This document shows, one piece after another, positions 14,843 to 38,326 of a stretch of 64,000 bases of DNA. The translations under genes were made by a program, and so were the position numbers. Under the pieces are notes generated by a model, which did no database searches, was not told where the DNA came from, and saw only the letters and a program-made list of their open reading frames with translations. Position 1 is the stretch's first letter. Each line of letters starts with the position of its first letter. The stretch is from Phaeacidiphilus oryzae TH49. GTDB taxonomy: Bacteria; Actinomycetota; Actinomycetes; Streptomycetales; Streptomycetaceae. The stretch covers positions 4,729,801 through 4,793,800 of the forward strand of contig NZ_JQMQ01000005.1 of assembly GCF_000744815.1 (NCBI RefSeq), in the 5' to 3' direction.

Positions 14843-15244
14843 GTGCGAGGAGAGCGGCGGCGGGGACAGGGCGTGCTGGAGGCGGAGGTGCTGGCCCAGC
14901 TGCAACAGGCGGCCGAGGTCTGCCCGCTGACGCCGGCCCAGGTCCGGGAGCGCCTCCCGGCCGGGTCGGACGGCGAGGAGCTGGCCTACAGCACGGTGGT
15001 CACCGTCCTCTCCCGGCTCTACGAGAAGGGCCTGCTGGCGCGGGTCCGGCAGGGCAGGGCGTACGCCTACACGCCGGTCGCCGACCGGCACGGGCTCACG
15101 GCCCGCCGGATGCACCGGATGATGGACGCCGACCCCGACCGGGAGGCCGTCCTCAGCCGCTTCGTCGACGACCTCTCGGCCCGGGACGAGGACCTGCTGC
15201 GCCGCCTCCTCGGCGGCCCGGAGGCCCCGGGGGAGGGGGGCTGA
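14843..15244 (+). CDS. BlaI/MecI/CopY family transcriptional repressor
   Basis: 133 aa; winged-helix N-terminus (EAEVLAQLQQAAEVCPLTPAQVRERL...YSTVVTVLSRLYEKGLLAR) typical of penicillinase-repressor family proteins. Directly followed by an M56 peptidase gene. Confidence 0.8.
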   Translation: MRGERRRGQGVLEAEVLAQLQQAAEVCPLTPAQVRERLPAGSDGEELAYSTVVTVLSRLYEKGLLARVRQGRAYAYTPVADRHGLTARRMHRMMDADPDREAVLSRFVDDLSARDEDLLRRLLGGPEAPGEGG

Positions 15245-15245
15245 C

Positions 15246-16289
15246 GTGCTCTCCCTGGTCTACCTGGTCTATCTGCCGCTGCTGCTCCCGGTGCTCGCGG
15301 CCGGCACCGCCCGGCCGATCGCCGAGCGGGTCGAACCCCGGCTCGCCACCTGGCTGCTGACCCTCTCCGCGCTCGCCCTCGCGGCCGGCAGCGGGATCTC
15401 CCTCGGGGTGCTGGCGGTGGCCGGGGTGGCCCGGCTGCCGCTGGCCGGGCTGATCGGCGACTGGTCGGTCGGCACGGTCCGCACCGGCGACCCGGTCGGC
15501 CTGGCCGAGGCGGCGCTCGCCGGGCTCCTCTTCACGGTGGCGCTGGGCGCGGCACTGCGGATGCTGTGGCGGCGGATGCGGGCGCTGGTCGCGGCCGGCT
15601 TCGAGGCGTACTGCCTGCCGGGCGCGGGCGAGCTGGCGGTGGTCGAGGACGAGCGGCCGGAGGCGTACGCGCTGCCCGGGCTGCCGAACGGTGGCTCGCC
15701 GCCGGACCCGGGCCGTTCCAGGTCCTGGGGGCGGATCGTGGTCTCCACCGGGATGCTGCGCAGCCTCGACCAGTCCGAGCGCGAGGTGCTCTTCGCCCAC
15801 GAGCGGGCCCATCTCGCCTGCCACCACTACGCGTTCGTCGCGGCGGCGCATCTGGCCTCGGCGGCCAACCCGCTGCTGCGGCCGGTCGCCGCGGCGGTGG
15901 CCTACACCGTCGAGCGCTGGGCCGACGAGCGGGCCGCGACGGCCTGCGGCGACCGGCGCCGGGTGGCGCAGGCGGTGGGCAAGGCGGCGCTGGCCGCCAA
16001 GCGGCACCGGCGGCGGCGCGGATCCCGGCTGCCGGCGGCGGCGCTCGGTCTGGTCGCGGGGCGGCACGGCCGGAACGGCCGGAAGGACCGGAAGGACCGG
16101 AAGGACCGGCGGGATCCGCTGCGCGGTGCCGGTCCGGTTCCGCGCAGGGTGGCGGCGCTGCTGACGCCGCCGGCGTACCTCAGGCTGGTGCCGCAGTCGG
16201 TGACGGCCCTGCTGGTCGGCGCCAGCGTGCTGTGCGCGACGGCGGCGGCGCGGGACCTCCACCATCTGCTGAAGATCGCCCACGGCTGA
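15246..16289 (+). CDS. M56-family (BlaR1-like) zinc metallopeptidase membrane protein
   Basis: HExxH motif (FAHERAHLACHH) after N-terminal transmembrane segments. GTG at 15246 overlaps the BlaI-like stop. Contains an internal KDRKDRKDR tract encoded by a 9-bp tandem repeat. Confidence 0.75.
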   Translation: MLSLVYLVYLPLLLPVLAAGTARPIAERVEPRLATWLLTLSALALAAGSGISLGVLAVAGVARLPLAGLIGDWSVGTVRTGDPVGLAEAALAGLLFTVALGAALRMLWRRMRALVAAGFEAYCLPGAGELAVVEDERPEAYALPGLPNGGSPPDPGRSRSWGRIVVSTGMLRSLDQSEREVLFAHERAHLACHHYAFVAAAHLASAANPLLRPVAAAVAYTVERWADERAATACGDRRRVAQAVGKAALAAKRHRRRRGSRLPAAALGLVAGRHGRNGRKDRKDRKDRRDPLRGAGPVPRRVAALLTPPAYLRLVPQSVTALLVGASVLCATAAARDLHHLLKIAHG

Positions 16290-16810: not shown

Positions 16811-17299
16811 TCACCGCCGGATCCGGGTGCCGACGTGCCGGGCGACGACCTCGCCGGTGTCGTCCCGGCGGAACTCGGTGCGGAAGGTCAGCACCGCCAT
16901 CCGCCCGGAGCGGCCGGCCTTCTCCACCGCCTCCACCAGCTCGGTCCGCGAGCGCAGCACGTCGCCGAGCCGCAGTTCGGGCGCCGCCTCCGGGTACTCG
17001 AAGCGGTCGCCGCCGTTGAGCCAGCCCTGCCCGTACGCCAGTGCGGCGGGGCACTCGGGCGGCTCGTCCACGAAACCGCAGAGCAGCGTCGGCGGGACGG
17101 CCAGGTCGTCGGGGACGGCCCCCGGCGCGGGCGCGGCGGCGGTCCGCCCGTCCACCGCGATCGCGGTGAGGAAGTCGCCGAGATGCCGGTGCTCGACGCG
17201 GTCCACGCGCTCCCGGCCCTGCCAGCCGACGGCCGCGGCGAGCCGCGCCATCTCCTCGGATACCTGCGGTGCCGCCGCACCCGGAGTCGCTGAAGTCAC
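16811..17299 (-). CDS. MaoC N-terminal-like hot-dog protein (HadA-like non-catalytic dehydratase partner)
   Basis: About 160-aa hot-dog fold protein immediately upstream of, and 2 nt from, the MaoC dehydratase gene. The pair arrangement resembles HadA/HadB. GTG start at 17299. Confidence 0.7.
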   Translation of the reverse strand: MTSATPGAAAPQVSEEMARLAAAVGWQGRERVDRVEHRHLGDFLTAIAVDGRTAAAPAPGAVPDDLAVPPTLLCGFVDEPPECPAALAYGQGWLNGGDRFEYPEAAPELRLGDVLRSRTELVEAVEKAGRSGRMAVLTFRTEFRRDDTGEVVARHVGTRIRR

Positions 17300-17479
17300 C
17301 GTTCTTCTCTATCACGGGCTACCTCTGCCGACGTACCGCGGCCGGGTTCGCCGGGGATTGTCAGACCCCTCCGCCAGAATGCGGACAGGAGCCGATTCTG
17401 ACGGGCCATCAGAGCGTGATCCCCCAGCGTGATCCCCCAGCGTGATCCCACAGCACGACCGATCCGAGGAGTTGAAGTC

Positions 17480-24889: not shown

Positions 24890-25462
24890 GTGACCGTGAG
24901 CACCGAACTCCAGAACAAGACCATCGCCTTCCTCGTCGCGCCCGAAGGAGTGGAGCAGGTCGAACTGACCGATCCCTGGCAGGCCGTCCACGACGCGGGC
25001 GGGACGCCGCGCCTCCTCTCCACGGGCGCCGAACGCGTCCAGGCCTTCAACCATCTGGACAAGGCGGACACCTTCCCGGTCCACCAGCAGGTCGCGGACG
25101 CCGACCCGGCCGACTACGACGCGCTGGTCCTGCCCGGCGGCGTGGCCAACCCCGACTTCCTGCGGACCGACTCCGACGCGGTGGCCTTCACCAAGGCCTT
25201 CTTCGACGCCCGCAAGCCGGTCGCGGCGATCTGCCACGGCCCGTGGACCCTGGTCGAGGCCGGCGTGGTCCGCGACCGCACGCTGACCTCCTGGCCGAGC
25301 CTGCGCACCGACATCGAGAACGCCAGCGGCCACTGGGTCGACGAGGAGGTCTTCGTCTGCCCCGGCGGGCCCAACGTGCTGATCACCAGCCGCAAGCCGG
25401 ACGACCTGCCGGCCTTCGACAAGGCCCTGATCACCGAGTTCGCCAAGGGCCCGAAGGGCTGA
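24890..25462 (+). CDS. DJ-1/PfpI family protein (type-1 glutamine amidotransferase-like)
   Basis: IAFLVAPEGVEQVEL, nucleophile-elbow Cys (AAICHGPW) and VVRDRTLTSWPS are DJ-1/PfpI signatures. Confidence 0.85.
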   Translation: MTVSTELQNKTIAFLVAPEGVEQVELTDPWQAVHDAGGTPRLLSTGAERVQAFNHLDKADTFPVHQQVADADPADYDALVLPGGVANPDFLRTDSDAVAFTKAFFDARKPVAAICHGPWTLVEAGVVRDRTLTSWPSLRTDIENASGHWVDEEVFVCPGGPNVLITSRKPDDLPAFDKALITEFAKGPKG

Positions 25463-25540
25463 CCGGGCGGCCCGCCTGACCGGGCGCCCCTCCTGACCGG
25501 GCGCGCCCCCTCCTCACCGGCCTCCCCTCCCCGCCGCGGA

Positions 25541-30676: not shown

Positions 30677-30704
30677 GTCCGGCGTCTCTCACTTCCCGGC
30701 TTGT

Positions 30705-30872
30705 ACCGCGTGTGCTGTGTGTACTGCGTCTGCCGCGTGCCTTGCGTGCCTCGCGTGGCCTGCGTGCTCCGCGTGCCTCGCGTGCCCGGCGTGCCTCGTG
30801 TGCCCCGGGGGCCTCGCGTGCCCTGCGTGCCTCGCGTGGCCCGGGGGCCCGCGTGCCCTGTCCGCCCCGCGT
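30705..30872. repeat. About 18-copy tandem 9-bp repeat array (consensus CYCGCGTGC) filling the flotillin to AAA-ATPase intergenic region
   Basis: Direct reading gives ...gccgcgtgc cttgcgtgc ctcgcgtgg cctgcgtgc tccgcgtgc ctcgcgtgc ccggcgtgc ctcgtgtgc cccgggggc ctcgcgtgc cctgcgtgc ctcgcgtgg cccgggggc... Because the unit is 9 bp, all three frames stay open. A 96-aa minus-strand ORF (30673-30963) spans it. Confidence 0.85.
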
Positions 30873-30959: not shown

Positions 30960-33041
30960 TCACGCCGAGGCGTCGCCGCCGTTCGCCGCCGCCAGCGGCA
31001 TCTGGGCCAGGCCCAACCGCTCGGCCTGCTCCATCAGACGGCGGACCTGGCCGGCCTGCGCCCCGCCGTCCTTGGCCAGCCGCGTCAGCAGTGCCGACAC
31101 CGTGAGGTCGCGCACGTCCCCGGCGGAGACCGAGCCGACCATCCTGGTCAGGTCCTCCGGGAAGCTCGCGCTGCCGTTCAGCCAGGGGCCGATCAGCGCC
31201 TGCGCCGTCTCGGAGTGCTGGACGAAGCCGTCGACGCCCTTGCCCATGCCGATCGCCGAGACCAGCCGGTCGAAGAAGGCGCTCTCGCCGCCGACGATGT
31301 CGATGTCGGCGTGCTCCAACCCGGTGGCCAGCACGGTGGCCTGGGCCTCCGCGAGCCGGCGCTGCATGTCCAGGCCGGCCAGCCGGACCTCCTTCTCCGC
31401 GGCCAGGCGCAGCCGGTACTCCTCGTGGCCGCGGGAGGCGTCGTCCAGCGCGGCCATCGCCGCAGCCTTCTCGGTGAGCCCCTCGGCCTCGGCCTTCAGC
31501 TTCTCGCCGATCATCGCGGCCTCCGCGGTGGCCAGTGCCGCCGTCCCCTCGGCCTCGGCGAGCGCCTTGAGCCGCGCCCCCTCCGCCTCGGCCCGCAGCC
31601 GCGCGGCCGTCGCCTCGGCCTCGGCCCGGCCGGCCTTCTCCACTACCTCCGCCTCCTTGTCCCGCACCTGCACGGAGGCGAGGCCGCCGGCGGCCTCCTC
31701 GGCCTGCACGGCCTCGGCGAGCCGCAGCTTGGCCTTGGCGTCCAGGTCGGCGGCCTTCAACCGGGCCTCGGCCAGGGTGAGTTGCTCGGCCGCCCGGTGA
31801 GTGGCCGCGGCCTCGGCGGCCTCCGCCGCCTTGATGTCCTTGACCAGCCGCTCCTGGGCCTCCGCCTCGGCGGCGATGATCACGGACTGGCGGGTGCGCT
31901 CGGCCTCCTCGACCACGCGCAGCTTCTTGATGGACTCCTCCTGCTCGGCGACCGTCCGGTCGACCGCGACCCGCTCGCGTACCACGTCCGCCATCTCCCG
32001 GCGCTCGGTCTCGACCTCGCGCTGGGCGGCGATCCGGGACAGCTCGGTGGCACGGTCCCGGGCGATGGCCTCCAACTGGCGGTCCTTCTCGATCCGTTCG
32101 TTCTCCACGGCGATCACCCGCTCGCGGTTCTTCTCCGCGGCGGCGATCTCCCGCGCCTGGTTCTCGCGCTGCACGCCGAGCAGCTCCTCGGTGCGGATGA
32201 ACGCGGTCTGCGCCTCCAGCCGCTGCTCCTCCTGCGTCTTGGCGGTGACCGCCTCCTCGCGGGCCCGCAGCGTCTCCACCTCGCGGCGCTGCTTGATCTC
32301 GGCCTCCGCCTGCCGGCGCTCCAGCTCCAGGATGGTCTCCCGGGCGTCGACGTCCTGGCGGGTGATCTCCTTCTGCTCGGTGCGCTGGTACTCGTTGGTG
32401 CGCACGTGCTCGGTCGTCGTCAGCTCGGTGATCTTGCGGATGCCCTGGGCGTCCAGGATGTTCGACGGGTCGAGCTGCGACATCGAGGTCTGCTCGAGGA
32501 AGTCGATGGCCGCGTCGTCCAGGTGGTAGCCGTTCAGGTCGGTGCCGATGACCTGGATGATGCGGTCCCGGAACTCCTCGCGCTTGGTGTAGAGATCGAC
32601 GAAGTCCAGCTGCTTGCCGACGGTCTTGAGCCCCTCGGAGAACTTCGCCGCGAAGAACTCCTGGATCGCCTTCGGGTCGCTGGCGGTGGCCGTGCCGATG
32701 GACTGCGCGACCTTGACGACGTCCTCGACGGTCTTGTTCACCCGCACGAAGAACGAGATGTGGATGTCCGCGCGGATGTTGTCCCGGCAGATCAGCCCCT
32801 CCCGGCCGGTGCGCCGGATCTCGATGGTCTTCACCGAGATGTCCATGTACTCGGCCTTGTGGACGACGGGCAGCACGATCGCGCCGGTGAAGGTCACGTC
32901 GACCTTCTTGGCCTTGGAGATGATCAGCGCCCGCCCCTGCTCCACCTTGCGGAACAGCCGGCTGAAGAGCACCAGCACCGTGAGCGAGATGAGCAGCACG
33001 ACGGCGACGAGCACACCGATGGCCAGGGATACGGCATCCAT
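30960..33041 (-). CDS. Flotillin family (SPFH/band-7) protein, YqiK/FloT-like, with an extended coiled-coil
   Basis: N-terminal transmembrane anchor, SPFH domain (ALIISKAKKVDVTFTGAIVLPVVHKAEYMDISVKTIEI...) and a long EA-rich coiled-coil (AEAEIKQRREVETLRAREEA...). GAAGGA RBS precedes the ATG at 33041. Confidence 0.9.
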   Translation of the reverse strand: MDAVSLAIGVLVAVVLLISLTVLVLFSRLFRKVEQGRALIISKAKKVDVTFTGAIVLPVVHKAEYMDISVKTIEIRRTGREGLICRDNIRADIHISFFVRVNKTVEDVVKVAQSIGTATASDPKAIQEFFAAKFSEGLKTVGKQLDFVDLYTKREEFRDRIIQVIGTDLNGYHLDDAAIDFLEQTSMSQLDPSNILDAQGIRKITELTTTEHVRTNEYQRTEQKEITRQDVDARETILELERRQAEAEIKQRREVETLRAREEAVTAKTQEEQRLEAQTAFIRTEELLGVQRENQAREIAAAEKNRERVIAVENERIEKDRQLEAIARDRATELSRIAAQREVETERREMADVVRERVAVDRTVAEQEESIKKLRVVEEAERTRQSVIIAAEAEAQERLVKDIKAAEAAEAAATHRAAEQLTLAEARLKAADLDAKAKLRLAEAVQAEEAAGGLASVQVRDKEAEVVEKAGRAEAEATAARLRAEAEGARLKALAEAEGTAALATAEAAMIGEKLKAEAEGLTEKAAAMAALDDASRGHEEYRLRLAAEKEVRLAGLDMQRRLAEAQATVLATGLEHADIDIVGGESAFFDRLVSAIGMGKGVDGFVQHSETAQALIGPWLNGSASFPEDLTRMVGSVSAGDVRDLTVSALLTRLAKDGGAQAGQVRRLMEQAERLGLAQMPLAAANGGDASA

Positions 33042-33070
33042 GACAGAGACAGTCCTTCGAGGATCAACAG

Positions 33071-33095
33071 GTGAGGTGAGGTGAGATGAGGTGCG
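33071..33095. repeat. Hexamer tandem repeat (GGTGAG x4 on plus strand, CTCACC on minus strand) in the flotillin 5' leader
   Basis: Plus strand reads caggtgaggtgaggtgagatgaggtg, located 30-55 nt upstream of the flotillin ATG on the minus strand. Confidence 0.7.
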
Positions 33096-33195
33096 CCGAG
33101 CGGGCCGCGGACACGCACGCGGGCATGCGGGCCCGCGAGTCGGTGGCCGGGCGTCGCGGAGACTCTTCCCGGAACCCGGCAGCTTCGGCTCGCCG

Positions 33196-33252
33196 CCGCT
33201 ACGTCTGCAGCGCTACGTCTGCGCCGCTACGTCTGCGTCACTACGTCTGCGG
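33196..33252. repeat. Tandem 14-bp repeat x4 (CGCTACGTCTGCGN) between the NfeD-like gene stop and the flotillin start
   Basis: ccgctacgtctgcag cgctacgtctgcgc cgctacgtctgcgt cactacgtctgcgg; each unit has an ACGT core. The last copy overlaps the NfeD-like stop. Confidence 0.8.
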
Positions 33253-33885
33253 CGCGCCCGGCGGCCCGGTTTCGGGTCGCAGTACGGGGTCGAAGGGCGC
33301 GACCCAGAAGAACTCGCCCTGCTCGTCGTAGTCGTAGAGCAGACCGGTGGTCCCCGCGGCCCCCGCGGCCAGCAGCTCGGCGTCCCTCGGCTGGGCGCGG
33401 ACCGGCACCACGGCGCTCGACCCGTCCTCGGCGCCGACCTCGGCCTGGCCGAATTCGGCCGTGACCCGCCCGGTGCGGATCCGGCAGGTGAGTCCGACGA
33501 AGTCGCGCCGGGACGGGGCGGATTGCTCGGGCAGCACCCGGCGCAGCCGCCGGACCAGCGCCAGGGTGGACACCCAGGACAGCAGCAGGGCGGCGAAGAG
33601 CACCGCCGTTTCGAGGACGGTCCGCAGGGGCCCCGCCGCGACCGCGGCGCGGACCAGCAGCGCGCCGGTCAGGCTGGTGAACCAGGCGATCAGGACCAGG
33701 AAGGACACCGGCACGGTGACCGGTACCGAGCCGCCGCCGAGCGTCTCGGGGAGGTGGTGGGCGTGCAGCGCGTCGTGGTCCGCCGCCCCGACCAGGACCA
33801 GCAGCCAGAACACCACCACGACGATCAGGGCTGCGCCGAACAGCACGGCCGGGAAACCGAGCGCGGCACGCAGGAACTCTCCCAC
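33241..33885 (-). CDS. NfeD-like / YqiJ-family (DUF1449) membrane protein; first gene of the flotillin operon
   Basis: N-terminal transmembrane helices (FPAVLFGAALIVVVVFWLLVLVGAA, FLVLIAWFTSLTGALLV) and a C-terminal beta-rich OB-like region, in the position of yqiJ/nfeD upstream of the flotillin. GGAGGGGGAGGG lies 3 nt upstream of the GTG at 33885. ORF is open to 34191. Confidence 0.65.
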   Translation of the reverse strand: MGEFLRAALGFPAVLFGAALIVVVVFWLLVLVGAADHDALHAHHLPETLGGGSVPVTVPVSFLVLIAWFTSLTGALLVRAAVAAGPLRTVLETAVLFAALLLSWVSTLALVRRLRRVLPEQSAPSRRDFVGLTCRIRTGRVTAEFGQAEVGAEDGSSAVVPVRAQPRDAELLAAGAAGTTGLLYDYDEQGEFFWVAPFDPVLRPETGPPGAPQT

Positions 33886-35230: not shown

Positions 35231-35258
35231 CGGCTCGGCGGGGGCCGGGAGGTCCACG

Positions 35259-35798
35259 GTGATCATCAGCAGAGGCGGCCGTCGTGCCGCGATCCGAACA
35301 GACGAGTCTTCTGCCGTCTACGTCGGCACACATGTCGCTCGCTGCGAGCGCGCCGGCCCGGCCGAGCCGGTACGTGCGGTGCGGGCGGTCGTGGAACTGA
35401 GCCGAGCGCTCGGCGGGATGACGATGCGGGCCCTTCTCGGGGCCGAGTTCTCACCGGATCCATCGGGGTCGGCGACTGAGTTCGAGGTCCCGTTCGATGA
35501 GCCTCTGGGGCTCGGCGCGGTTGCCCATGCCCACTGCCGCAGCGAGCTCGGACGCTCGCTCGTGGCTGGGTTGCCAGGCGACTTCGCCGCTGCGGTGCTC
35601 GACGGACTGGCAGGAGAGGCCGCGGCCAGGACGTTGCCGAGGGGGCTGCTGCGGATCGACCGCGCGGGCTTCGACGAGGCAGGCTCCTCTGAGATGGCCT
35701 TCAAGCTCGCTGGGGGCCTGTTGCGGTGTGTCGTGGAGGCCCTGCTGCATGGCGACGATCCGCTCGTGGCGGCCCAGGCCGTCGTGAGCGGATGGTGA
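35259..35798 (+). CDS. Hypothetical protein with atypical (lower GC3) codon usage
   Basis: 179-aa ORF with protein-like composition but many A/T-ending codons (tca, gat, cca, act, gtt, ttg, tct, tgt) compared with its neighbours. Lies between the PucR gene and the tRNA-Lys 3' end. Confidence 0.3.
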   Translation: MIISRGGRRAAIRTDESSAVYVGTHVARCERAGPAEPVRAVRAVVELSRALGGMTMRALLGAEFSPDPSGSATEFEVPFDEPLGLGAVAHAHCRSELGRSLVAGLPGDFAAAVLDGLAGEAAARTLPRGLLRIDRAGFDEAGSSEMAFKLAGGLLRCVVEALLHGDDPLVAAQAVVSGW

Positions 35799-36015
35799 CG
35801 TGGGAGTCAGGCCGAAGAATAGGCAGCGCCGATGGCAGCCGGGGGCCCCCGGTGAACAGCCTCACCAAGGCGTCCAGATGGCCGATGCCGTGTAGTCGTG
35901 TGTGCGCGGACGCCCCACGCAGGGGGAGTGAGCCTGCGCACTGGGACCTGCCTCCGGCGAGCTGATCGGACGCGTGCGGTTCTTGTGCAGGCGTTCCCGC
36001 TCTGCTCCCACCGCA

Positions 36016-36064
36016 AATCAAAAACGGCCTGGGGCCTCCCGTCGAAACGCGAGGCCCCAGGCCG
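36016..36064 (-). terminator. Intrinsic terminator downstream of tRNA-Lys
   Basis: Minus strand has a 13-bp perfect stem GGCCTGGGGCCTC/GAGGCCCCAGGCC with loop gcgtttcgacgg, then GTTTTTGATTTG. It starts 22 nt after the tRNA 3' end. Confidence 0.75.
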
Positions 36065-36085
36065 TTGTACTGCATGTCTTGCTTG

Positions 36086-36159
36086 TGCGCCGCCAGGGAC
36101 TCGAACCCCGGACCCGCTGATTAAGAGTCAGCTGCTCTAACCAACTGAGCTAGCGGCGC
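36086..36159 (-). tRNA. tRNA-Lys: tRNA-Lys (anticodon CTT)
   Basis: Minus strand GCGCCGCTAGCTCAGTTGGTTAGAGCAGCTGACTCTTAATCAGCGGGTCCGGGGTTCGAGTCCCTGGCGGCGCA folds as a cloverleaf: 7-bp acceptor stem, TAGCTCAGTTGGTTAGAGC D-arm, anticodon loop CTCTTAA, GGTTCGAGTCC T-arm. CCA is not encoded. Confidence 0.9.
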
Positions 36160-36267
36160 GGGCGTCGTCGCCTCGGGCGAGCTGGTCGCCGTCGCGTTGA
36201 CGGAAGTAATCATAGCGGACCTTCGCCGGTGCTCCGACCACCGTCGGCCACCGTCCGGCCGCGCGGT

Positions 36268-37077
36268 TCAGCGGCTGGAGGCGGCCGCCGCGGTGCTGGT
36301 GGTCTGGTCGGTCTCGACCAGGCGGCGGACGGCGTCCGCGATCTCGTCCCGGGCGACCAGCAGCTGGAGCCAGATCCGCGGCTCCCGGCCGTCCCAGCCC
36401 GGGTAGAGGCGGGCGCTGAGGCAGCCGGCGGCGGCCAGCGCGGCCAGCCGCCGGTCGTGGACGGAAGCGCCCTGAACAGCGGGCGCGCCGGGGGGCACGC
36501 CGCCCCCGCCGCGGGCCCCGCCGACCGCCCGTACCGCCGCGTCCACCTCGGCCGCCAGCCGCCGGTGGGCGTCCGCCGACTCGGCGTAGTACCCGGTGCG
36601 CGGGAAGAGGCCCAGCACCCGCCGCTGCTCGACCCGCAGCAGCCCCCGCGAGACCAGCGCGTCCAGATACGGCCGGTCCGCGTTTCTGGCCAGCCGGCGC
36701 AGCGCCGCCTGCAGCGGCAGCCCGCGCGGGTTCTCGGCGGCCGCCTCGGCCACCCAGGCCAGCGCCGCGTCAAGGCCCGGCTCCCCGCGCGGTGCCGGCG
36801 AGGCGAGCCCGACCCGTCCGCCGCCGACCCGGACCGACCGGTTCAGCTGCAGCTCCGCCAGTACCGCCCCGGCCAGCGCGTACCGGAAGAACTGCGGCTG
36901 CCGTACCCGCAGGCTGCGCGGGTCGAGGCAGAGGAGCAGCAGCTCCTCGGGCAGCGGGAGCCGGTACGCGGCACGCGAATCGAAGCCGGTTTCTGGGGTC
37001 GTCGCTCCGTCCACCCGACCACGTTCGCACGGCCGAGCGGGCATCCGGCAGGCTCGCGGGGACGACCGGCCGCTCAT
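36268..37077 (-). CDS. GPP34/GOLPH3 family protein
   Basis: LPLPEELLLLCLDPRSLRVRQPQFFRYALAGAVLAELQL matches the GPP34-family N-terminal signature. The longer ORF to 38034 is antisense to the peptidase gene, so the start is taken at ATG 37077; ATG 37044 is an alternative. Confidence 0.7.
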   Translation of the reverse strand: MSGRSSPRACRMPARPCERGRVDGATTPETGFDSRAAYRLPLPEELLLLCLDPRSLRVRQPQFFRYALAGAVLAELQLNRSVRVGGGRVGLASPAPRGEPGLDAALAWVAEAAAENPRGLPLQAALRRLARNADRPYLDALVSRGLLRVEQRRVLGLFPRTGYYAESADAHRRLAAEVDAAVRAVGGARGGGGVPPGAPAVQGASVHDRRLAALAAAGCLSARLYPGWDGREPRIWLQLLVARDEIADAVRRLVETDQTTSTAAAASSR

Positions 37078-37152
37078 GGGGCGGATGTCGGTGCGCCGTG
37101 ATACGTCTGACGGCGTATCGGAACCGACGGTCGCGGCCAGCGGAGGTAGGCG

Positions 37153-38326
37153 ATGGCATCCAGGGCGGGGCGGCTGAACGCGCTGACGGACGTCCCCGGG
37201 CTGAGGGTGGGGCACGCCCAGCGGATCGGGGAGGGCTGGCTCTCCGGCACGACGGTCGTCCTCGCCCCACCCGGCGGCGCGGTCGCCGCGGTGGACGTCC
37301 GCGGCGGCGGTCCGGGCACCCGCGAGACCGACGCCCTCGATCCGCGCAACCTCGTCCAGCGGGTCGAGGCGGTGGTGCTGACCGGCGGCAGCGCCTTCGG
37401 CCTGGCCGCCGCGGACGGGGTGATGGCCTGGCTGGAGGAGCGCGAGCGGGGCTTCCCGGTCGGGCCCGGCCGGGTCGTCCCGGTCGTCCCCGCGGCGGCG
37501 CTCTTCGACCTCGGCCGCGGCGGGGACTGGCGGGCCCGCCCGGGCGCCGCCCTCGGGCGCACGGCGGCCGAGGCCGCCTGGGCGGCGGGGGAGGGGGTGC
37601 CGGTGCCGCAGGGCGCGGTCGGCGCGGGCACCGGCGCGCACACCGAGGGCGGGCTCAAGGGCGGGATAGGCACGGCGAGCGCGGTGGTCCCGCTGCCGGC
37701 CGCCGAGGGGCGGGAGGCGTGCGAGGTGACCGTCGCCGCCCTGGTCGCGCTGAACGCGGCCGGCTCCCCGGTGGACCCGGCCACCGGGCTGCCGTACGGA
37801 GCCTTCGCGGAGGTGGAGGGCGAGTTCGGCCGGCTGGGCGGGCTGGCCGGCGCGGAGGCGCGCGGCCCGCTGCCGGAGGCGGTACGCCGGCGGGCGGCCG
37901 AGCGGCTGGCGGAGGCGGCGGGCGCCCCGGCCCCGGCAGCCCGGCCTCCGGCAGCCCGGCCCCGGCGGCACGGCCTCCGGCGGCACGGCGGCCGCCGCCC
38001 AGCCGCTCAACACCACCCTCGCCGTCGTCGCCACCGACGCCGAGCTGACCCGCCCTCAACTCCACAAGCTGGCCGGCACCGCCCATGACGGCCTGGCCCG
38101 CGCGGTCCGCCCGGTGCATCTCCTCAACGACGGGGACACCGTCTTCACCCTCGGCACCGGCACCGGCACCGCCCCGGCGCCGGCCGACGCCCTCGCGGTG
38201 AACGCGATCCTCGCCGCCGGCGCGGACGCGGTCACCCGCGCGGTGGTGCACGCCGTGTTGAGCGCGGAGTCGGTCCGCACCCCGGCCCGCTCCTTCCCCT
38301 GCTACCGCGAGCTGTACCTGGAGTGA
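37153..38326 (+). CDS. P1 family peptidase (DmpA/S58-type aminopeptidase) with an apparent frameshift inside a short tandem repeat at about 37930-37990
   Basis: N-terminal 260 aa or so (NALTDVPGLRVGHAQR...VDVRGGGPGTRETDAL...VLTGGSAFGLAAADGVMAWLEE) read in frame 1. The conserved C-terminal region (NTTLAVVATDAELTRPQLHKLAGTAHDGLARAVRPVHLLNDGDTVFTLGTG) reads in frame 2 (ORF 38114-38326). The join lies within ccggcagcccggcct ccggcagcccggccc cggcggcacggcct ccggcggcacggcggcc. Confidence 0.7.

Follow-up and report, generated by a model that had tools for sequence, protein, structure and literature searches.

Gene content and the split peptidase gene

In this study, a window of 64,000 nucleotides (64 kb) from Phaeacidiphilus oryzae TH49 with a G+C content of 74% was analyzed. 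All positions given below are those of this window. A peptidase gene of the DmpA/P1 (S58) family was found in the neighborhood of a GPP34-like gene, a tRNA gene, and genes encoding a luciferase-like monooxygenase and a PALP enzyme. The GPP34-like gene upstream on the opposite strand and the luciferase-like monooxygenase gene downstream were also present at the orthologous locus L001, which encodes the protein P0001.

Several features of the surroundings were recorded. A region of approximately 0.9 kb (35250-36160) showed no coding signal of high GC3, an uncommon situation in this genome, and contained only a weak ORF of 179 aa (35259-35798). This low-GC3 region adjoins the tRNA gene (36086-36159, minus strand, 68 bits) and is located just upstream of the GPP34-like gene. 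An antisense ORF of 588 codons (36268-38034, minus strand) covers the whole N-terminal part of the peptidase gene. The 3' third of this ORF (36268-36960) is its only real portion and encodes the GPP34-like protein (E = 4e-31), and the remainder is a long spurious ORF of the kind usual in high-G+C DNA.

The peptidase gene was read in one frame from 37153 to about 37930 and in the +1 frame from about 37964 to 38326 (Table 1). Positions 1-197 of the Pfam profile PF03576 (Peptidase_S58; curated cut-off 23.9 bits) matched residues 9-216 of the frame starting at 37153 (E = 1.3e-40, 140 bits), and positions 205-301 matched the +1 frame ending at 38326 (E = 4.8e-20, 73 bits). Together, the two matches span the whole profile, but in different reading frames. 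The second frame contains NTTLAVVATDAEL...HLLNDGDTVFTLGTG and also PLNTTLAVVATDAEL. NCBIfam gave no match for either half. These data agree with an earlier note on this DNA, which had described one DmpA/P1 gene split by a frame change within a repeat, with its N-terminal part starting at 37153 and its conserved C-terminal core in the +1 frame ending at 38326.

The GC3 frame scan showed that the frame-0 coding signal fades after about 37860-37930 and that the frame-1 signal begins at about 37973-38011. The net frame change is +1, which is equal to -2. Homology placed it at 37921-37990 and codon usage at 37921-37965. A Shine-Dalgarno sequence (GGAGG) was found 8 nt upstream of the ATG at 37153. 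In frame 1, no ATG, GTG, TTG, CTG, or ATH codon occurs between the upstream stop at 37754 and position 38011. The first start codon in this frame is the GTG at 38114, well beyond the nucleophile. The C-terminal part, whose stop codon is 38324-38326, carries the LN|TTL autoproteolysis site and the Thr nucleophile at about 38003-38017. Lacking a start codon, the beta part cannot be produced separately, and the gene is non-functional in its assembled form. A single precursor with alpha and beta parts is absent from the assembled sequence and appears only after sequence repair. With the alpha part in frame 0 and the beta part in frame 1, the locus therefore represents either a family pseudogene or a member whose sequence was mis-assembled.

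The protein annotated at this locus, P0002 ("P1 family peptidase [Phaeacidiphilus oryzae]", NCBI/UniRef, 311 aa), is identical to the frame-0 ORF 37153-38088. Its out-of-frame tail is not real protein sequence.

Table 1. Positions of the parts of the split peptidase gene, the repeat units, and the proposed error sites. Units were parsed from GGC, and the frame is that of the first base of each unit.
Feature	Position	Strand	Sequence and length	Frame	Evidence or remark
N-terminal (alpha-chain) part of the S58/P1 peptidase	37153..37934	+		0	ATG at 37153; Pfam; 83.7% identity to orthologue P0001
Tandem array, five units, encoding a low-complexity alpha-chain tail	37921..37993	+			Tandem Repeats Finder, lag statistics, unit phases
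Unit U0	37921-37934		GGCGCCCCGGCCCC, 14 nt	0	
Unit U1	37935-37949		GGCAGCCCGGCCTCC, 15 nt	2	
Unit U2	37950-37963		GGCAGCCCGGCCCC, 14 nt	2	
Unit U3	37964-37978		GGCGGCACGGCCTCC, 15 nt	1	
Unit U4	37979-37993		GGCGGCACGGCGGCC, 15 nt	1	
CCCC run, end of U0	37931..37934	+		0 to 2	Proposed first missing base; register, codon usage
CCCC run, end of U2	37960..37963	+		2 to 1	Proposed second missing base; register, codon usage
Assembled sequence across both CCCC runs			GGCGCCCCGGCCCCGGCAGCCCGGCCTCCGGCAGCCCGGCCCCGGCGGCACGG		C4 at both sites
Out-of-frame tail of the annotated 311-aa protein P0002	37935..38088	+	…RPPAARPRRHGLRRHGGRRPAAQHHPRRRRHRRRADPPSTPQAGRHRP	0	Arg/His/Pro-rich; frame-0 coding signal stops before it
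C-terminal (beta-chain) part	37964..38326	+		1	Pfam; ThnT motif alignment; dN/dS 0.211

Tandem array and its register

The frame change lies inside the tandem array. With a period of 15 nt, Tandem Repeats Finder reported the array at 37926-37989 with 4.4 copies, 90% matches, 5% indels, and a score of 86. When the same array was read with a period of 29 nt, there were 2.2 copies, 88% matches, no indels, and a score of 100. The repeat exceeds what chance would give: at lag 29, 31 of 35 positions matched, and when the whole 64 kb was simulated 20 times with a first-order Markov model, the highest count over lags of 7-45 was 26. The array is the sole place of this kind at lag 29 in the window. About 11 loci with a Tandem Repeats Finder score of at least 70 were found in the 64 kb, and the repeat by itself is therefore ordinary. 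What is unusual is that its unit lengths are not all multiples of three. The two pairs of near-identical 15-mers described in the earlier note do belong to a true tandem array, although its units measure 14, 15, 14, 15, and 15 nt rather than 15 nt throughout.

U0 is in register with the upstream part of the gene, and U3 and U4 are in register with the downstream part. The two 14-nt units, U0 and U2, are one base short at the same place (GGCC.CC, versus GGCCTCC in full units), and both CCCC runs sit in the identical 12-nt context CCCGGCCCCGGC, 29 nt apart. Since the frames of the five units are 0, 2, 2, 1, and 1, two single-base deficits account for the shift, with one step for each 14-nt unit. 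When one base was added to each 14-nt unit, a stop-free ORF of 391 aa was obtained, which reads ...AERLAEAA-GAPAP-GSPAS-GSPAP-GGTAS-GGTAA-AAQPLN|TTLAVV....

When a codon-usage search was allowed to place two extra bases at any positions in 37903-37999, it picked 37932/33 and 37961/62 (13.8 bits). The best removal of a single base, at 37934-37938, scored 9.8 bits; this difference is small, and the model with two bases is the more flexible one. Other repairs also left an open frame: the removal of one C (390 aa), the addition of a third 29-nt copy (400 aa), and the removal of both copies (371 aa). A single 29-nt duplication was rejected as the cause, as the gene is still out of frame when one copy is removed. 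The variant bases are shared by U1 and U2 (A4, C7) and by U3 and U4 (G4, A7). This sharing fits 15-nt duplications in a working gene and not one 29-nt event.

Similarity to ThnT and to other family members

In a search of the PDB, the repaired protein matched ThnT in one continuous stretch (query 6-390, chain 50-417, E = 1e-114, approximately 61% identity), which indicates that the halves are not independent genes, a possibility that an alignment to the family had been proposed to settle. The fold assignment is safe because crystal structures at 61% identity exist. The motif PLN|TTLAVVATDA aligned with LNTTL of wild-type ThnT, and the deposited variants LNCTL and LNATL differ at the same residue. 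The first Thr of LN|TTL is presumably the ThnT nucleophile Thr282, in the numbering Asn281/Thr282 that we assume for the scissile bond. From this alignment it follows that the frame change falls within the C-terminal alpha-chain tail, about 20 codons ahead of the scissile bond. Judged by homology, the gene is predicted to be an ordinary ThnT-like self-cleaving N-terminal-nucleophile amidohydrolase of MEROPS family P1 (Pfam S58).

ThnT of Streptomyces (Streptantibioticus) cattleya (PDB 3TM1, 3TM2, 3S3U, 4IHD, 4IHE) is the pantetheine hydrolase of thienamycin biosynthesis. It is described as a cis-autoproteolytic enzyme (PMC13062082). The LN|TTL motif is common to both proteins. In contrast to ThnT, the P. 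oryzae gene lies outside any carbapenem (thn) cluster, carries approximately 16 extra residues of pentapeptide repeat in its alpha-chain tail, and is frameshifted in the assembly.

The closest homologue was P0001 (385 aa, 79% identity), from a soil metagenome, and a search of 5.8 billion proteins returned nothing above 79% identity except P0002. More than 7,900 homologues were found at E ≤ 1e-20, mostly annotated as "P1 family peptidase" of Streptomyces. The genome loci retained in the scan (at least 80) and the full-length relatives from metagenomes all matched the query over nearly its whole length. The Streptomycetaceae orthologues (P0001 and P0003-P0120) belong to the same family and to the same length class (341-468 aa), and their linker before LNTT is also variable in length and of low complexity. 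They differ from the P. oryzae gene in that all are intact and the periods of their linker arrays are multiples of three, whereas the P. oryzae array has two 14-nt units. The comparison with orthologues that the earlier note had recommended thus found the gene intact in every relative examined.

DmpA of Ochrobactrum anthropi, BapA, and NylC with the nylon-oligomer hydrolases share the PF03576 family with this gene. Members of the DmpA, BapA, and NylC types are all self-processing alpha/beta precursors. They are distant relatives that match mainly the N-terminal part and act on different substrates; NylC and the nylon hydrolases appeared in the PDB search with E-values of 1e-37 to 1e-9.

The alpha-chain linker as a variable segment

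Both motifs could be located in 64 of 120 homologues, and in these the distance from LNAAGS to LNTT ranged from 44 to 89 residues. Pro, Ala, and Gly are abundant in the inserts that immediately precede the cleavage site of the homologues, and some of these inserts are clearly repetitive. At the DNA level, tandem arrays also occur at this position in intact homologues, with periods of 15, 18, 21, 24, or 36 nt, all multiples of three. The variation in length fits a disordered segment under little constraint. In ThnT-like enzymes, in-frame tandem duplication has occurred repeatedly in the alpha-chain tail that immediately precedes the self-cleavage site.

At the array, P. oryzae has 52 extra nucleotides relative to L001, a multiple of three plus one. 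U4 (GGTAA) corresponds to GGSAA of P0001, and the array therefore grew upstream from U4. The three or four other coding tandem arrays in the window keep the frame and show indels of whole codons.

Other arrays were also noted. In the same gene, a second, in-frame array at 38152-38184 (CGGCAC, 5.7 copies) encodes the GTGTGT of a beta-chain loop that varies in length among homologues. Among the tandem arrays of the 64 kb, the top Tandem Repeats Finder score (152) was obtained at 30733-30858, where CGCGTGCCT occurs in 13.9 copies or an 18-nt unit in 7.1 copies. This array lies between two minus-strand ORFs, one of 1716 codons ending near 30688 and the other at 30960-33212. Further intergenic arrays adjoin gene ends at 33197-33255 (14 nt, 4.2 copies), 17413-17454 (13 nt, 3.2 copies), and 25459-25530 (17/37 nt, approximately 3 copies).

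Signs of decay

Relative to L001, dN/dS was 0.235 for the N-terminal part and 0.211 for the C-terminal part, and the flanking genes gave 0.16 and 0.51. Replacements were polarized with 118 outgroup proteins. The lineage-specific replacements numbered 12 in P. oryzae versus 19 in P0001, with 5 versus 15 in the N-terminal part and 7 versus 4 in the C-terminal part. At sites conserved in at least 90% of proteins, the N-terminal part had 0 replacements in P. oryzae versus 7 in P0001, and the C-terminal part 2 versus 0. One of the two conserved-site changes in the C-terminal part sits in a poorly aligned Gly-Thr repeat loop. There is thus a faint hint of faster change in the C-terminal part.

A Pro encoded by CCT, a rare codon here, was seen at 38041-38043 in ...LTRPQLHKLAGTAHDG..., where Ala is present in P0001 and in 94% of the 118 homologues. 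Only two P. oryzae-specific changes at highly conserved sites were seen, this one included, and both lie downstream of the frameshift.

Neither a stop codon nor a second frameshift was found in the remainder of the gene. The dN/dS and relative-rate tests revealed no clear relaxation, a result that agrees with a very recent inactivation as well as with an artefact. Any real inactivation must therefore be very recent, which counts against a history of a deletion, then a 29-nt duplication, and then three substitutions by which the copies differ.

Source and quality of the assembly

The draft genome of P. oryzae TH49 (formerly Streptacidiphilus oryzae) contains 6,526 CDS and 272 pseudogenes; it was produced from a PacBio RS 10-kb library with HGAP 2.2.0, and no short reads are mentioned (PMC4481293, PMC7601586). 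A Streptomyces assembly with 73.3% G+C, for which newer chemistry was used at 262x, retained 205 indels after polishing to QV >50, "nearly all" of them in G/C homopolymers (PMC4832174). In comparable PacBio-only assemblies, 70-335 indels were retained, nearly all in G/C runs, and we read these as bases missing from the PacBio-only sequence. From these counts, one such error is expected every 25-110 kb. We estimate that a few percent of genes carry a false frameshift in an unpolished assembly of this kind.

The window contains approximately 140 G/C runs of length 5 and approximately 26 of length 6. The GC3 frame scan of the 64 kb gave no other frameshift candidate, and the window alone therefore offers no independent sign of a sloppy assembly. 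Two ORF junctions were inspected and rejected as frameshifts. The junction at 15244/15246 is an ordinary gene pair of a BlaI-like repressor and a BlaR1/M48-like peptidase, and that at 16811-16844 is an ordinary MaoC-like pair. In the former pair (14843-16289), the BlaI/MecI-type repressor (Penicillinase_R, E = 2e-21) is followed by the BlaR1/M48-like peptidase one base after its stop.

A search for a second assembly of the species found none. Exact-product look-ups for the 311-aa ORF and for P0002 had nothing on record, and scans of genomes and metagenomes gave, among the matches listed, only relatives at ≤65% identity.

Origin of the frame change

The P. oryzae TH49 assembly (PacBio RS/HGAP) is unpolished, and the apparent frameshift is probably a consensus error in it. 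One base would be missing from each of the two C-runs in the shared 12-nt context, within the 15-nt (pentapeptide) array that is predicted to encode the disordered C-terminal tail of the alpha chain. If both bases were restored, an intact precursor of 391 aa would result, which would cleave itself at Asn|Thr and expose the catalytic Thr. We infer that the two deficits are errors rather than mutations.

Among the readings put forward in the earlier note (pseudogene, phase-variable gene, or indel error), an indel error is best supported because the assembly rests on PacBio RS and HGAP only, and this platform is known for exactly such defects. Identical deficits in identical contexts are expected of a context-dependent error, and a second mutation would need an independent event at the same spot. 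The repeat register joins the upstream and downstream frames exactly, and the unconstrained two-base search landed on the same two sites. The gene is otherwise pristine, with its cleavage and nucleophile motif intact, as are the relatives examined.

The likeness to homopolymer indel errors in PacBio-only assemblies of high-G+C actinomycetes is close: the platform, the assembler family, and the G+C content (73.4%) are the same, and a single-base deficit in a C-run splits a conserved gene. The differences are that two deficits are required here and usually one, and that the runs are C4 as assembled (presumably C5), a length near the lower end of those at which errors usually arise. The loss of one base, which is the modal PacBio error, would change the frame from 0 to 2, and the observed change from 0 to 1 needs two such losses within 29 nt or else one extra base, which is rarer. 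Should the true spacer be CCTCC (the sequence in U1 and U3), a T was lost, and this would not be a homopolymer miscall. Other frameshifts were not seen despite many G/C runs, and the other coding arrays keep their frame; errors are therefore locally infrequent. The weak hint of faster change in the C-terminal part also weighs against a consensus error.

A real frameshift, by which the gene would be a recently inactivated pseudogene in TH49, is a serious but distinctly less probable explanation. Two histories can be considered: a single C inserted in the C-run near 37925-37938, or a one-base loss in a repeat unit, which afterwards spread through a 29-nt duplication or through conversion inside the array. 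The sole available assembly contains the shift, and the lack of any other visible frameshift in the 64 kb indicates that this assembly is locally clean. The net change of +1 is the outcome of one real insertion in a C-run, and the removal of a base at 37934-37938 restores the 390-aa ORF. Likewise, the 29-nt periodicity without indels is the trace expected from the duplication of a unit that already carried the deletion. The C-terminal part is slightly richer in P. oryzae-specific replacements, and 272 pseudogenes are annotated in this genome. However, a 29-nt duplication after inactivation, followed by three substitutions that make the copies diverge by approximately 5%, implies a long time as a pseudogene. 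The other 1.1 kb of the gene has neither stop nor second frameshift, with a dN/dS of approximately 0.2 and fewer replacements than P0001. The variant sharing between units, the intact state of every relative examined, and the known defects of the platform speak against a real frameshift as well. If the pseudogene were real, nothing but a truncated alpha-like chain that ends in nonsense sequence would be produced, and the nucleophile and the activity would be absent.

The earlier note had further suggested that slippage in the repeat could switch the gene on and off. Such a phase-variable gene, in which changes in repeat copy number would toggle the frame within the population, has in its favor that the frame change lies within a tandem repeat and that, with a period of 29 nt, the gene is in frame at 0 or 3 copies but out of frame at 1 or 2. 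We consider it very improbable, because slippage by 15 nt never shifts the frame and the 29-nt unit is present in only about 2.2 imperfect copies (88% identity). Known contingency loci consist of many perfect short units, and a long perfect tract of short repeats whose unit is not a multiple of three was not found in this gene. At this spot, the arrays of the homologues are all in frame. The gene encodes a cytoplasmic amidohydrolase and lies between GPP34-like and luciferase-like genes, with no hint of a contingency locus.

Even less credit can be given to a real shift that is bypassed in translation. CCC-C is a known shift-prone quadruplet for tRNA-Pro. The frame-0 codon at 37960-62 is CCC and is followed by C, and a +1 ribosomal slip at this in-frame CCC-C (37960-37963) would enter the C-terminal frame exactly, join ...AARP to GGTAS..., and yield a full-length precursor. 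However, this genome has approximately 80 C4 runs per 10 kb, the CCC-C is not followed by a stop or rare codon, and no stimulatory element was identified. Reading U1-U2 in frame 0 requires the codons GCA, CCT, and GCA, which are atypical where third positions are approximately 95% G+C. The arrangement is absent from the relatives, none of which has a split gene, so that the slippery site with a stimulator, conserved in relatives, of a programmed frameshift was not found. If the slip were true, the gene would encode a recoded Ntn-hydrolase whose expression level is set by the frame maintenance of tRNA-Pro, at a site just upstream of the autoproteolytic site.

The notion that the halves are separate genes for the alpha and beta subunits, to which the closeness of the break to the natural alpha/beta cleavage site, about 20 codons further downstream, might lend some color, deserves the least credence of all: the halves overlap in the repeat with neither intergenic spacer nor ribosome-binding site between them, the homologues are all single precursors, and the lack of a start codon in frame 1 upstream of the NTT motif rules it out. 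Phase variation, translational bypass, and split subunit genes jointly account for a very small part of the probability at most.

Significance of the finding

The family is well characterized and a consensus error of this type is a defect of a well-known kind, and mechanistically there is nothing new. For drafts of high-G+C actinomycetes that were made with PacBio RS only, polishing with short reads is needed before pseudogenes are counted. The RefSeq/UniRef entry P0002 has a wrong C-terminus, with approximately 50 out-of-frame Arg/His-rich residues and no catalytic beta chain. It is not flagged as a pseudogene and would mislead phylogeny, family profiles, and structure prediction.
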